IMG/VR virus record: IMGVR_UViG_2671180275_000010
Direction: 5' to 3' (one strand)
DNA: 42,548 bases
DNA from: a virus
Lineage: Duplodnaviria > Heunggongvirae > Uroviricota > Caudoviricetes
The position numbers and the translations under genes are program-made. Shown piece after piece: positions 9,953 to 24,470 of this stretch. The notes below the pieces were generated by a model. The model made no database searches. It was not told where the DNA came from and saw only the letters and a program-made list of their open reading frames with translations. The number at the start of each line of letters is the position of its first letter. Position 1 is the stretch's first letter.

Positions 9953-10037
9953 TTCTGCAATTCCGGGACGTTACACTGTTCCGGCACCTTATAAAGCGGG
10001 TGCCGGGCGTGGAAACCCGAAATTCAATATAGAGCAC

Positions 10038-10060
10038 AACCGCGCTCATGCGGTTTTTTC
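10038..10060 (+). terminator. Intrinsic terminator-like hairpin (AACCGC-GCTCAT-GCGGTT + TTTTTT)
   Basis: 6-bp GC-rich stem followed by a 6-T run; lies inside the implausible N-terminal extension of the Rha ORF. Confidence 0.4.
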
Positions 10061-10229
10061 GTGTCATGAGCATCGTTACGCCCAAATTATGGTGGGGCGT
10101 GCAGGGCCAACTTCGGTTGGGCCGGGTTCTATGTTGACCGGTATTTCCACCCCTGTACGTCTCACCACCTATATGGTCGTGGAAAGCCTTGGTGGTGAGT
10201 TCATTGAATTCAACATAGGGGCTGTCACC

Positions 10230-17570: not shown

Positions 17571-17805
17571 ACCTCACAATTCAGGCGGTTGACTGTTGTC
17601 TGGTTTGCGGGGAGTTTGTTAAAAGAAACTGGCATGGTGAATCCCCCTGTGCGGAGGGGCAATCAGCAACTGGTGTTTTGTCACCGACCCTTATCCTTTC
17701 TGTGCGGGTTCAGGTGCTGATACTGAACTCACCGGGAGGCACCCGGCACCATGCAATGGCACATAGCGCCACTCTCCAGCCCCTCTCCGGAGGGGCTTTT
17801 CTGTG
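17571..17805 (+). repeat. Late promoter/leader/terminator-like unit, copy 1 (TTGACT -35-like motif, conserved hairpins, terminal GCCCCTC-TCCG-GAGGGGC hairpin + U-tract)
   Basis: Shares three conserved blocks with copy 2, in the same order and spacing. Confidence 0.5.
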
Positions 17806-17991
17806 CCGGATACATCACAGTTTCTGGAACCTTGGGTACTACAGTATCAGTCAGGGTGCTATATTTTCAGATGTGATGAAAGCCTGTCAGCAGGCAGGGC
17901 GTATCGGAAATGACCCAGTAGAGAAAACGTTGACTCAGATACCGGTGCTGAGTTACCGGGAAACCGGCATCACATGACCGCTATCCTTCCA

Positions 17992-18055: not shown

Positions 18056-18292
18056 CTCACAATTCAGTAAGTTGACAGTTGCCTGTCAGACTGGGCATTT
18101 GTTAAAAAAATTTCGCATGGTGAATCCCCCTGAGCGGAGGGGCGACTGGTGACGGTATAATCTCTGATTATCAAAACGAGAATGACGCGGGTTTAGTGGC
18201 ACCGGGCTGAACTCACCGGGAGGCACCCGGCACCATGTGCATGATGATACAGATACGCGGCTTTAGCCCCTCTCCGGAGGGGCTTTCTTGTG
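18056..18292 (+). repeat. Late promoter/leader/terminator-like unit, copy 2 (TTGACA motif, internal TATAAT at about 18156, terminal GCCCCTC-TCCG-GAGGGGC hairpin)
   Basis: Paralogous to copy 1; immediately upstream of nanS-p and the lysis genes. Confidence 0.5.
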
Positions 18293-18295
18293 GGC

Positions 18296-18321
18296 AAAAA
18301 AAAGCCCGAGTGGGTTCGGGC
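18296..18321 (-). terminator. Minus-strand intrinsic terminator (GCCCGA-GTGGGT-TCGGGC followed by 8 U on the minus strand)
   Basis: Hairpin preceded on the plus strand by AAAAAAAA. Confidence 0.45.
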
Positions 18322-18376
18322 AACAGCATGAGATATACATTTTTATAATCGAATGGATTTTAACCAGAATTCATAA

Positions 18377-20842: not shown

Positions 20843-21112
20843 ATGTCAGAAATAAAATCGCTGGTCACTGCTGAGGCAGTGAAGGAAGTCCTGCGCTCTG
20901 AAGAAGTCCGGAGCGCACTGAAACAGCAACTTCGGCAGAACCTTGAGGCGCGTCTTGATGCAGAAGTGGATGCCATTCTGGATGAACTGCTGGGCGCACC
21001 GACTGTTCCGGAGCCGGAAGGCATTGCGGATGACAGTGCTGTTTCAGATGGCGTCGGGTCTCAGCCTGACGGTAGTGAAGAGCCTCAGCCTGACGGCGAA
21101 ATGATGATGTAA
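20843..21112 (+). CDS. Acidic hypothetical protein
   Basis: Internal ATG (Met59) of track ORF 20669..21112; 89 aa, highly acidic C-terminus. Confidence 0.4.
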   Translation: MSEIKSLVTAEAVKEVLRSEEVRSALKQQLRQNLEARLDAEVDAILDELLGAPTVPEPEGIADDSAVSDGVGSQPDGSEEPQPDGEMMM

Positions 21113-21187
21113 CCATGCGCAGGGGGTGTCGGTGTGAGCTGATGCCCCACTTGTTGTTGTGAGCTTCCGGATTGCGGGAGACGGGGT

Positions 21188-21403
21188 ATGTACCAGATGG
21201 AAAAAATCACAACAGGTGTGTCATACACCACGTCAGCGGTGGGAACGGGCTACTGGTTCCTGCAGTTGCTGGACAGGGTTTCCCCGTCTCAGTGGGCGGC
21301 AATAGGCGTGCTGGGGAGTCTGCTGTTTGGTCTGCTGACATATCTGACGAACCTGTATTTCAAAATTAAAGAAGACCGGCGTAAGGCGGCGCGGGGAGAG
21401 TAG
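21188..21403 (+). CDS. S: Class II holin, phage-21 S-type (pinholin) with possible dual-start motif (MYQMEK)
   Basis: 71 aa; near-identical over most of its length to my recollection of S21 ([51 protein letters not shown]). Confidence 0.85.
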
Positions 21404-21406
21404 ACG

Positions 21407-22042
21407 ATGAATAAACAATACGAACTGGTTGTTAAAGGGATAAATAATTACCCGGATAAGATTACTGTTACTGTGGCACTGGAAATTGCCGGGCAGCCGT
21501 CGTTGTTGTCGCCATATGTGGCGATTAGTCTTGACCGTACTGAAGGTGCCACGCTGGAATTTTACGAAGCTGAGGCGAAAAAACAGGCGAAGCAGTTTTT
21601 CATGGATATTGCTGCCGCTTTATGTGAAGGGGATGAGCAGTCGCCGGAAAAGCGCCCCATAATTTTAGAGGCGCAGGATGTGTTGATAACCTACAGAGGA
21701 AAACTACCGGGAATAATTACTGGTTCTCTGAAGACGCCACCGACGGCATTGCGGTCAGAAAACGATGATATTGAATCACGCATTGAAAAACTGGAGTGCT
21801 ATATCGCTGAATTGAAAAAAAGCACCCCAACAAAAAATGAGGTGCTTGCAGCAGATGAAATGAAAGAAACTATTCTTGATCGCGCGGCGCATCTAAGCTG
21901 CGCTTCACGGTTGAAAGAGCATCTTCAGCGGCCTGAAGAAAAACGCCGCGATGAGCAGTTCGCGGCGTTTTACGATTATTGCATTGAAGTTACTCGCAGG
22001 AATTTTGTGAAGGCTTTTGAGGAGAGTAAATCTCTTCAGTAA
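21407..22042 (+). CDS. Hypothetical protein inserted in the lysis cassette
   Basis: 211-aa ORF starting 3 nt after the holin stop with GGAGAG SD; AT-richer than neighbours; no recognisable motif. Confidence 0.55.
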   Translation: MNKQYELVVKGINNYPDKITVTVALEIAGQPSLLSPYVAISLDRTEGATLEFYEAEAKKQAKQFFMDIAAALCEGDEQSPEKRPIILEAQDVLITYRGKLPGIITGSLKTPPTALRSENDDIESRIEKLECYIAELKKSTPTKNEVLAADEMKETILDRAAHLSCASRLKEHLQRPEEKRRDEQFAAFYDYCIEVTRRNFVKAFEESKSLQ

Positions 22043-22250
22043 GCTTAATGGCGGACGCTGCAATTAATTCAGGAAGGTCCGCAAGGTCATCTGTCAGTGG
22101 GAATGATGAAAAATCGGCGGCAGTTCTGTTAAGAATTGCTTTAACTAATTCCTTTTCCTCATCCGGCAACACGTTGATTAGAGCTACGACTGCTTGCCTG
22201 AGTGCGATTAAATCAGCAAAAGTTTGTTTTGGTAGATTTGGATAATCCAT
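21990..22250 (-). CDS. Hypothetical 86-aa protein, convergent with and overlapping the 3' end of the 211-aa gene
   Basis: Internal ATG (Met76) of track ORF 21990..22475 preceded by GAGGTG SD; protein-like composition; the competing plus-strand ORF 22048..22245 is low-complexity. Confidence 0.45.
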   Translation of the reverse strand: MDYPNLPKQTFADLIALRQAVVALINVLPDEEKELVKAILNRTAADFSSFPLTDDLADLPELIAASAIKLTEEIYSPQKPSQNSCE

Positions 22251-22361
22251 AGTCACCTCTGTGTTTATCAGATTGACATACCCTGGCCAGTGCCCACCAC
22301 TGGCGGGGTGAAGGCTTAACATATCCAGGGATTCGGAACCGATAAATCCTGATAAATATCC

Positions 22362-22895
22362 ATGAACGCAAAAATCAAATACGGCCTGTCGGCTGCCGTT
22401 CTGGCGCTGATTGCCGCAGGGGCTTCTGCGCCTGAAATTCTCGACCAGTTTCTGGATGAAAAGGAAGGTAACCACACCACGGCATACCGTGATGGTGCAG
22501 GTATCTGGACCATCTGCCGTGGTGCCATCATGGTGGATGGCAAACCTGTCGTTCCGGGCATGAAGTTGTCGAAGGAAAAATGCGACCAGGTTAACGCCAT
22601 TGAGCGTGATAAAGCGCTGGCGTGGGTGGAGAAAAACATCAGAGTGCCGCTGACCGAACCCCAGAAAGCGGGGATCGCGTCATTCTGTCCGTATAACATT
22701 GGTCCCGGTAAGTGTTTCCCGTCGACGTTTTATAAACGAATTAATGCAGGCGATCGCAGGGGAGCGTGTGAGGCGATTCGCTGGTGGATTAAGGACGGTG
22801 GCAGAGACTGCCGTATTCGTTCAAACAACTGCTACGGTCAGGTATCCCGTCGTGACCAGGAGAGCGCGCTGGCGTGCTGGGGTATCGACAGATAA
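22362..22895 (+). CDS. R: SAR endolysin (T4-lysozyme-like muramidase, GH24, R21-type)
   Basis: 177 aa; N-terminal weakly hydrophobic SAR-like segment (YGLSAAVLALIAAGASAP); catalytic E-x8-D-x5-T (EGNHTTAYRDGAGIWTICRG) as in R21. Confidence 0.9.
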   Translation: MNAKIKYGLSAAVLALIAAGASAPEILDQFLDEKEGNHTTAYRDGAGIWTICRGAIMVDGKPVVPGMKLSKEKCDQVNAIERDKALAWVEKNIRVPLTEPQKAGIASFCPYNIGPGKCFPSTFYKRINAGDRRGACEAIRWWIKDGGRDCRIRSNNCYGQVSRRDQESALACWGIDR

Positions 22896-22984: not shown

Positions 22985-23026
22985 AAAAACCCCGTTTGTT
23001 GGCTGCAAGCGGGGTTTTGTGTTTCC
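22985..23026 (+). terminator. Terminator-like hairpin downstream of R
   Basis: AAAACCCCG ... CGGGGTTTT stem followed by GTGTTT. Confidence 0.35.
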
Positions 23027-23054
23027 TGACTCTGGAAAAGTCAAAGGAGAAAGT

Positions 23055-23192
23055 GTGTTTGATTTTAGCAAACTGATTCGGGAGATTCGAGTGATGGCTG
23101 AAAAATTATCCACCTGGAAGTTCATTCTTATCTGGCTGGTGTTTGTGATTATGGCCTCCGGTTATTTCATCGGTCAGATACGCTGGTGGTGA
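23055..23192 (+). CDS. Small hydrophobic protein (45 aa) between R and Rz
   Basis: GTG start 5 nt after AAAGGAGA SD; hydrophobic core WKFILIWLVFVIMASGYFIG; stop lies 1 nt before the Rz start codon. Confidence 0.4.
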   Translation: MFDFSKLIREIRVMAEKLSTWKFILIWLVFVIMASGYFIGQIRWW

Positions 23193-23661: not shown

Positions 23662-24011
23662 GTTTTGCTGATGCGCGGTATTGTCGCCGTATCCCCGCAT
23701 TAACAGAGACCGCAGCCCGACAGGGAGACTCCTCTGCGCGAGTGTGCGGGGATAATCAAAAACGATACACACCGGGGTTTACCGCGTTAACGGAGCGCGG
23801 CGTTGTCCCCTCATAGTCGCCTGTCCGGTGCGATGGTGGAAGAAGCCGGATGTTTATCACTATTAATTGATGACACAGAAATGGATTCATTGAATTTCAG
23901 CACGTTTTTGTATTCGTGTTATTGAACATCTGTTTATTTTACTTTTAACATATTGATAATAAAAAGAGCTGTAAATCTTTAGATGAGTCGATTTTGTCCG
24001 GGGAAGTTCAA

Positions 24012-24152
24012 ATGGATTTTATGCTGACGGTTTCTGGTGTGGTTATCCTGTCCATTGCTTATACTGCAGATAAATATGGCTGCCATTTGTTATCACGTAT
24101 TGGCGCTTATTGTTCGTTGATGCTGATTTTCTCGTCGCTTTTTTTTGAGTAA
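24012..24152 (+). CDS. Possible small membrane protein (about 46 aa)
   Basis: Hydrophobic ORF in the AT-rich Rz-cos region; weak SD; not in ORF track. Confidence 0.2.
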   Translation: MDFMLTVSGVVILSIAYTADKYGCHLLSRIGAYCSLMLIFSSLFFE

Positions 24153-24284
24153 GTTATATTAATTATAACAAATAATTTTCTGTGTTATTTTTTCAGGCTA
24201 TCCCGTCAGAGGGGAAGCCTGTACTGCCAGGGAGCGAATGGAAAACTGATGTGTCCGGTAACTGCGTGTTCTGTGAACACCATG

Positions 24285-24470
24285 TTACTTAATTATGTAA
24301 TTCATACCCGAACTCTCTGTTGACAGCCTTCTTCTGCAGGCTTCAATAACCCACGCTGAAAAGTTTCCTGAACCTTTCAGATCAAGAGCGATGTTAATTT
24401 GTTCAATCATCTGGTTTGGAAATCGGATGTTGCGGGTTGTTGTTCTGCGCGTTCTGTTCTTTGATGACAT
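24285..24470 (-). CDS. Ribbon-helix-helix (Arc/MetJ/CopG-like) DNA-binding protein
   Basis: 61 aa; beta-strand/helix/G-x-S turn/helix pattern (RNIRFPNQMIEQINIALDLKGSGNFSAWVIEACRRRL); GGGGAA SD; inverted repeats (TGACGCAG ... CTGCGTCA) in its upstream region. Confidence 0.55.
   Translation of the reverse strand: MSSKNRTRRTTTRNIRFPNQMIEQINIALDLKGSGNFSAWVIEACRRRLSTESSGMNYIIK

Follow-up and report, generated by a model that had tools for sequence, protein, structure and literature searches.

The 958 nucleotides (nt) that separate the holin gene S from the endolysin gene R in the IMG/VR virus record IMGVR_UViG_2671180275_000010 (Caudoviricetes), an Escherichia coli prophage, represent a single allele of an accessory slot that varies strongly among S21-type lysis cassettes. 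The whole stretch of DNA analysed, 42,548 nt, is referred to as the window, and the S-R segment occupies its positions 21404-22361. Two open reading frames (ORFs) fill most of the segment: ORF1 on the plus strand, which encodes a mosaic protein of the YdfR family, and ORF2 on the minus strand, a small conserved orphan gene. The 3' end of ORF2 overlaps that of ORF1, where the coiled-coil tail ends, and this convergent pairing of ORF2 with the tail end is conserved. A first-pass annotation made from the sequence alone had described the segment (about 0.95 kb) as a two-gene cassette inserted between a pinholin and an endolysin of the signal-arrest-release (SAR) type, and had interpreted it as a moron with an exclusion, defence/anti-defence or lysis-timing function. 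The observation was confirmed, while the interpretation is partly supported. The features of the locus are as follows (aa, amino acids).

21188-21403, plus strand: S, S21-type class II holin (pinholin), 71 aa, dual start Met1/Met4, TAG stop at 21401-21403
21407-22042, plus strand: ORF1, 211-aa YdfR-family mosaic, ATG at 21407, 3 nt past the S stop, stop codon ending at 22042
21407-21625, plus strand: DUF1327 core of ORF1, residues 1-73
21626-21742, plus strand: linker of ORF1, residues 74-112, predicted to be disordered and ending in SLKTPP
21743-22039, plus strand: helical C-terminal tail of ORF1, residues 113-211, composed of a coiled-coil start, an 'A' segment and a 'B' end
21935-22039, plus strand: 'B' end of the tail, residues 177-211, sequence EEKRRDEQFAAFYDYCIEVTRRNFVKAFEESKSLQ
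21990-22042: convergent 3'-end overlap of ORF1 and ORF2, 53 nt
21990-22250, minus strand: ORF2, 86 aa, ATG at 22250-22248, stop codon ending at 21990
22254-22259, minus strand: Shine-Dalgarno sequence GAGGTG of ORF2, read from the sequence
21820-21847, minus strand: terminator-like hairpin with a T-run, within the 'A' segment of ORF1 and 143 nt beyond the ORF2 stop codon
22286-22304: palindrome GCCAGTG-N5-CACTGGC, 76 nt 5' of the R start, the right boundary of the variable cargo region
22316-22361, plus strand: conserved 46-nt leader of R, with GATAAAT at 22341-22347 and 22351-22357
22318-22346, minus strand: candidate promoter of ORF2, -35 TTTATC at 22346-22341, 17-nt spacer, -10 TATGTT at 22323-22318
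22362-22895, plus strand: R, endolysin with a SAR-type N-terminus, 177 aa

The polymorphism of the slot was evident from 71 IMG/VR loci that have R together with a holin at least 97 % identical to S of the window. S and R are adjacent in 12 of these loci, with a gap of 1-4 nt. A gap of 358-418 nt, holding a short YdfR gene only, was found in 18 loci, and longer inserts of 596-1316 nt occupy the other 41. The comparison with related prophages at the S-R junction, one of the checks proposed with the first-pass annotation, thus revealed presence/absence polymorphism with gaps ranging from 1 to 1316 nt. The YdfR-family proteins in the 71 loci are 86-328 aa long and combine a few modules in different ways. 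The place of ORF2 is taken by at least six unrelated small minus-strand genes (86, 90, 91, 104, 105 and 210 aa), and five of these cargo families are PHROGs listed without an assigned function. The variants diverge right after SLKTPP (codon 112 of ORF1) and reconverge at the left arm of the palindrome. The pentamer CCACC is found at 21737-21741 and again at 22294-22298, and the short 114-aa YdfR of Stx2a phages, such as Stx2a_WGPS2 with the same R leader, reads like the result of a deletion between the two copies by microhomology. Some other minus-strand ORFs in related inserts are nested wholly within plus-strand ORFs and are probably spurious.

Two marks of a moron are seen in the segment, namely presence or absence among close relatives and a deviant base composition. 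It is AT-richer than its flanks, as had been stated, but modestly so, the GC content being 0.43-0.49 compared to 0.54-0.58 in S and R. The description of the segment as inserted holds in that it is accessory. It does not hold in the sense of an unusual arrangement, since the order seen most commonly has a YdfR gene immediately behind the class II holin gene, as in the K-12 Qin prophage (essD-ydfR-rrrQ), in Shiga toxin (Stx) phages and in annotations across E. coli genomes. ORFs conserved and annotated in the lysis cassettes of 21-like phages had been named as the finding that would speak against the first-pass annotation, and through the position of the YdfR family, to which ORF1 belongs, this was found in part.

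ORF1 is composed of a DUF1327 core, a disordered linker and a coiled-coil tail which also exists separately as a protein of 67-73 aa. It was earlier thought that neither protein belonged to a family that could be named, which was incorrect for ORF1. Residues 1-112 of ORF1 match the Pfam profile DUF1327 (PF07041, profile positions 1-92/93) with 135.7 bits, the cut-off being 25, and an identical 211-aa protein (P0085) carries the NCBI name 'YdfR family protein'. In BLASTP, residues 1-74 were 45 % identical to K-12 YdfR. As anticipated, ORF1 has a Shine-Dalgarno sequence of its own (GGAG at 21395-21398, 8 nt 5' of the start). In the AlphaFold 2 model (mean predicted local distance difference test score, pLDDT, 53) the core consists of three strands and one helix (pLDDT 64-86), the linker has pLDDT values of 22-37, and disorder over residues 74-123 is followed by three low-confidence helices. 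The protein is predicted from its sequence to be soluble, with no transmembrane segment or signal sequence.

The 'A' segment of the tail is the same as in the 176-aa YdfR forms, and the tail of the window is thus an A + B mosaic. Homologues of the tail are 51-57 % identical across its full length, a stand-alone 67-aa form (P0079) without any DUF1327 domain lies directly 3' of the holin gene, and variation in the tail coding sequence is biased to third codon positions. Judged by these sequence comparisons, the tail is real coding sequence. In the RefSeq annotation of strain STEC2018-607 (locus L173, 6258-6599, corresponding to 21407-21748 of the window) ORF1 is called a pseudogene 'missing C-terminus', yet the 211-aa frame is intact. 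The 176-aa and 183-aa YdfR forms in loci L004 and L005 are likewise called pseudogenes, and these calls on the long forms look like an annotation artefact of a short family model.

ORF2 is, as far as its sequence can tell, a genuine small conserved orphan gene. It matches phrog_2572 from end to end (E 3.6e-50) and is intact in all of 85 related loci, with a ratio of non-synonymous to synonymous polymorphism (pN/pS) of about 0.4-0.7. Of 5426 complete E. coli genomes, 314 carry it, and it is present in eight phage records, some of them of phages isolated on laboratory hosts. An exhaustive profile-free search gave homologues at 42-58 % identity, and a metagenome scan gave one more at 38 %. Start and length are kept in these 38-58 % homologues, and the variation in ORF2 is biased to third codon positions. 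When one genome per species was scanned, ORF2 occurred only in E. coli; the metagenome scan added the one diverged locus. The protein is acidic (isoelectric point, pI, 4.3) and soluble without a transmembrane segment, and three helices are predicted (pLDDT 65).

Database searches brought a family for ORF1 and no structural match for either protein. Foldseek gave zero matches at E ≤ 0.001 for the ORF1 model against PDB and BFVD and for the ORF2 model against PDB, and nothing credible was found in PDB with the sequence of ORF1, the sequence of ORF2 or the ORF2 family profile. Against Pfam, ORF2 gave nothing at the cut-off. With the PADLOC, NCBIfam and Pfam models for defence, toxins and antitoxins there was no credible match for ORF1 or ORF2, the only hit being Cmr5 (E 0.018). 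Several resemblances were set aside. Among the folds these were a repeated but weak resemblance in BFVD to ERF/SAK3 annealing proteins and single weak resemblances in PDB to the dsRNA-binding proteins DCL4 and Loqs-PB, all kept as leads only (template modelling, TM, score < 0.25), the query models being of low confidence (mean pLDDT 53 for ORF1 and 65 for ORF2). The label 'DUF1823' that ORF2 bears in the PhiR5_1 record was rejected (PF08853, 15.3 bits against a cut-off of 25, E 0.023, over 30 residues), as were fungal TPR/CHAT matches (P0169, P0170), which reflect helical-repeat resemblance.

The convergent arrangement, expected to involve an overlap of about 50 nt, is maintained in the ORF2 loci that were compared. 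In all 85 loci the plus-strand gene that converges on ORF2 finishes in the same 'B' sequence, and the overlap is mostly 52 nt. The protein that bears this end is the 183-aa YdfR in 54 loci, the 176-aa YdfR in 8, the 211-aa form of the window in 5 and the stand-alone 67-aa protein in 5, and in the remaining 13 the protein is 169-173 aa long or the tail is broken (about 8). Diverged ORF2 homologues keep a convergent overlap of 52-59 nt. In the diverged locus L229 the holin gene is followed by the gene for a YdfR of 243 aa whose tail is related, by a convergent ORF2 homologue of 93 aa (59-nt overlap) and by R. In loci L175-L177 an ORF2 homologue overlaps a 73-aa homologue of the coiled-coil tail, and the pair lies after an Rz-like gene instead of between S and R. 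The persistence of the arrangement at 38-58 % identity and at two positions suggests, at the level of sequence, that ORF2 and the tail are a functional pair.

The palindrome and the GATAAAT repeat were found in the spacer of 111 nt between the starts of ORF2 and R (previously given as about 110 bp), the palindrome 2 nt from where it had been placed. They had been regarded as features of the two-gene cassette, and this did not stand. The palindrome lies at -76/-77 from R in loci with five unrelated cargo genes; cargo-free loci have no left arm, and the 90-aa cargo family has a different hairpin at its place. The 46-nt leader of R, including both GATAAAT copies, is conserved in all variants that have the leader, also in a cargo-free locus (42 unique versions were compared). 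The repeat belongs to the R leader and not to the insert, because it is conserved even without cargo. The hexamers of the candidate ORF2 promoter, which would lie within this leader, are invariant among the 42 unique leader sequences, while 7 of the 17 spacer positions vary. The terminator-like site on the minus strand downstream of ORF2 is absent from related cassettes without the 'A' segment and is thus particular to this allele. The palindrome was rejected as an operator on the basis of its single occurrence in the window, and as a terminator since no T-run accompanies it on either strand there. In Stx2 phage 86 (L002 4374-4470, minus strand) UUUUU follows the shared palindrome, which there, unlike in the window, resembles an intrinsic terminator. 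The right arm contains, at 22296-22306, the 11-mer ACCACTGGCGG, the core of the lambda operator OL1, which we take to be there by chance; the window has no second exact copy of it.

A lead to the function of ORF1 comes from a 2026 study which tied K-12 YdfR to RNase E (PMC13232886). Residues 1-72 of K-12 YdfR were sufficient to bind RNase E 1-597 in a two-hybrid assay, and the full-length protein pulled down the RNase E N-terminal domain, with RNA co-purifying (PMC13232886). The likeness of ORF1 to this protein consists of the 45 % identity over residues 1-74 and a matching predicted strand-strand-strand-helix core. The best explanation of the locus, to which we would give about an even chance as a whole, is a polymorphic slot in which the YdfR-family protein ORF1, made late, acts on RNase E or RNA, and in which ORF2, transcribed leftward in the lysogenic phase, pairs with the tail of ORF1. 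As its position implies, ORF1 would be made together with the holin and the endolysin. It would then act in the cytoplasm, and not on the envelope, to modulate the decay or processing of late phage mRNA through RNase E or RNA. The transcript of ORF2 would start from the promoter inside the conserved R leader, and the palindrome would form a stem-loop at its 5' end. ORF2 would be expressed while late transcription is off, i.e. in the lysogen or early in infection, and the late transcript, converging on it and complementary over its full length, would then silence it. The protein that ORF2 encodes may bind the helical ORF1 tail. Neither protein would be needed for lysis itself.

Parts of this scheme follow from the layout. 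ORF1 lies on the strand of the late operon, and no plus-strand terminator-like site was found between S and R, so that late transcription can run through, in agreement with the earlier placement of ORF1 on the late transcript. The antisense relation that had been proposed also holds, as ORF2 is a real convergent gene whose transcript is necessarily antisense to the late transcript. Because any ORF2 transcript would be fully complementary to the late transcript, mutual interference is expected.

Several observations weigh against this scheme of a late RNase E- or RNA-directed ORF1 paired with a lysogenic ORF2. Binding to RNase E is known for the K-12 relative and not for ORF1, and YdfR proteins as a family have no demonstrated function; literature searches for DUF1327 and ydfR turned up no functional study beyond the one cited. 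Overproduction of K-12 YdfR barely altered the transcriptome and did not affect growth (PMC13232886). The structure and profile searches assign no biochemical activity to ORF1 or ORF2. Co-occurrence alone is no proof of a functional pair, because the overlap physically ties ORF2 to the tail end and in part forces the two to occur together, and about 8 of the 85 loci keep ORF2 with a broken tail. The candidate promoter has a weight-matrix score of 7.5, which is not above background (about 1.9 sites per kb per strand), and a stricter consensus promoter scan gave nothing at this site; the invariant hexamers could instead reflect constraints on the translation of R. The hairpin folds are unexceptional (z -1.2 to -1.9).

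It is possible, though in our view unlikely, that the slot serves as a hotspot of genes for defence, exclusion or anti-defence, with ORF2 and the other cargo being protective proteins expressed in the lysogen or early anti-defence proteins, and ORF1 having a separate late function. Defence and anti-defence islands typically show turnover of the kind seen here, where at least six unrelated small genes occupy one place in one orientation. The cargo proteins are of small size and for the most part acidic, the segment is AT-richer than its flanks, and for the 105-aa cargo family there is a partial, weak match to PDC-S51, a candidate defence protein (E 1.3e-5). However, neither ORF1 nor ORF2 matched a defence model credibly, the other cargo families had no credible match in Pfam or PADLOC, and the PHROGs to which they belong are without an assigned function. 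Somewhat more doubtful is a role of the pair in the timing of lysis, by acting on pinholin triggering or SAR-endolysin release or through an ORF2 antisense RNA that lowers R expression. The location between S and R, with ORF1 starting directly after S, is what such a role would predict, and the geometry makes any ORF2 transcript antisense over its full length to the part of the late mRNA that immediately precedes R. A screen for envelope integrity flagged a K-12 ydfR mutant (as cited in PMC13232886). On the other hand, both proteins are soluble without a transmembrane or signal sequence, S and R are adjacent in 12 of the 71 loci with the same holin, and the homologous pair in L175-L177 lies after Rz. 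Furthermore, S21 encodes its own antiholin by means of its dual start.

A conserved unit of two genes that converge and overlap at their 3' ends, kept in diverged lineages and at two places in the cassette, would also suit a toxin-antitoxin or abortive-infection pair made up of the coiled-coil tail and ORF2, coupled by antisense RNA or by protein binding. We regard this as very improbable, since neither protein matches a toxin or antitoxin family or has a membrane segment or nuclease motif, and viable plaque-forming phages carry the pair. ORF2 occurs without an intact tail in about 8 of the 85 loci and the reverse in none (0/85), which is compatible with an antitoxin but not diagnostic of one. 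There is finally hardly any probability that ORF2 is a chance antisense frame and the tail of ORF1 a read-through into non-coding DNA, even though RefSeq annotates ORF1 as a truncated pseudogene and several minus-strand ORFs of related inserts, nested in plus-strand ORFs, are probably spurious. Against it stand the intactness of ORF2 in 85 of 85 loci, its constant start and length in the 38-58 % homologues, the 51-57 % identical tail homologues with their stand-alone form, and the bias of variation to third codon positions. A spurious ORF2 is excluded because ORF2 is conserved.

Within the preferred reading, that of a polymorphic slot with a late YdfR-family protein and a leftward ORF2, a more far-reaching version can be formulated, which we consider improbable. 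The slot, from about codon 112 of ydfR to the R leader, would be an exchangeable cargo site in which a fixed leftward promoter and 5' hairpin serve as an expression platform for whichever small gene is swapped in. Lambdoid phages would thereby have, within the lysis operon, an accessory gene that is expressed in the lysogen and silenced late. ORF2 and the tail of a late RNase E-binding protein would then form a two-protein switch connecting host RNA decay to the transition from lysogeny to lysis.

ORF1 belongs to a family already known to be widespread, and annotated copies of the cassette exist in public records. The novelty is descriptive and concerns how variable the slot is, the hairpin and leader that variants share, and the pair of genes whose overlap is conserved. 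The cassette reveals no new kind of system. YdfR of the K-12 Qin prophage belongs to the same DUF1327 family and occupies the same slot as ORF1, in the order essD/essQ-ydfR-rrrQ, and is 45 % identical to ORF1 over the 74-residue core. The K-12 protein has 103 aa and its gene overlaps the start of rrrQ without a convergent partner, whereas the 211-aa ORF1 continues with a linker and a coiled-coil tail of about 100 aa and is followed by ORF2. The Stx2-converting phage 86 (gp05/gp06) resembles the window in its gene order of holin, YdfR-family protein (a long form of 268 aa), small convergent gene (104 aa) and R. Phage 86 shares the palindrome and the leader of R as well. It differs in that the tail and the minus-strand protein are unrelated in sequence and the 3' ends do not overlap.

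In lambda, the bor gene neighbours the lysis genes, is encoded on the opposite strand and, from its own promoter, expresses in the lysogen a lipoprotein with a serum-resistance phenotype. ORF2 is like a bor-type moron in being a small accessory gene in or beside the late lysis region, opposite to late transcription and variable among relatives. In contrast to Bor, the ORF2 protein is cytoplasmic, the gene overlaps a late gene and its promoter is only a candidate. T7 gp0.7 kinase, phiKZ Dip and T4 Srd are phage modulators of RNase E that act early. If ORF1 behaves like K-12 YdfR it would, like these three, be a phage protein that contacts RNase E, although it has no sequence or fold similarity to them.

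YdfR proteins are among the commonest uncharacterised proteins of E. coli prophages and are located in the lysis operon of Shiga-toxin phages. The core that corresponds to the RNase E-binding part of K-12 YdfR is the sole constant part of a mosaic late protein, and the DNA past it is a site where small antisense genes are swapped. ORF2 is one such swapped-in gene and pairs with the coiled-coil tail by a conserved overlap. Viable phages with the cassette, PhiR5_1 and the PhiR12 series, offer testable constructs. The entire cassette is 99.6 % identical to that of phage PhiR5_1 and 100 % identical to that of the STEC2018-607 prophage.

The flanking genes are those of an S21 pinholin/SAR-endolysin cassette. 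The holin begins with MYQMEKIT and matches Pfam PF04971 'Bacteriophage P21 holin S' (E 7.2e-33) and the holin families phrog_9876/phrog_20. The lysozyme has a hydrophobic N-terminal SAR segment that begins MNAKIKYGLSAAVLALIAAGASAP and matches Pfam Phage_lysozyme (PF00959, E 3e-24) and the endolysin family phrog_7. A transposon origin of the insert was rejected, terminal inverted repeats not being seen by eye at its ends. A strong terminator-like hairpin of 14 pairs lies directly after R (22986-23018, plus strand), within the expected Q-antiterminated operon. It is followed by a 57-aa ORF at 23019-23192 (plus strand), between R and Rz, which has one hydrophobic stretch (WKFILIWLVFVIMASGYFIGQIRWW) and a close homologue at the same place in L229 (2547-2741). 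It may be another small accessory protein of the lysis cassette. An indel downstream of R distinguishes the STEC2018-607 prophage from the window. The annotation of that prophage has a frameshifted gene for a Rha-family regulator between the lysis gene and the terminase genes, and in the window an AT-rich patch (23800-24300, GC 0.35-0.39) lies between Rz and the terminase genes.

Rfam families gave no match in 21000-22600. Gathering-level matches elsewhere in the window were two to the small RNA STnc100 (17603-17808 and 18086-18295, plus strand) and one to AsxR (18299-18351, minus strand). They fall between the gene for the Q antiterminator and a SASA esterase gene, which is the stx site of Stx phages; there is no stx gene here. 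The Hfq-binding RNA isrK (9984-10060) and the C4 antisense RNA (10085-10172), both on the plus strand and also matched at gathering level, are neighbours in the early region.

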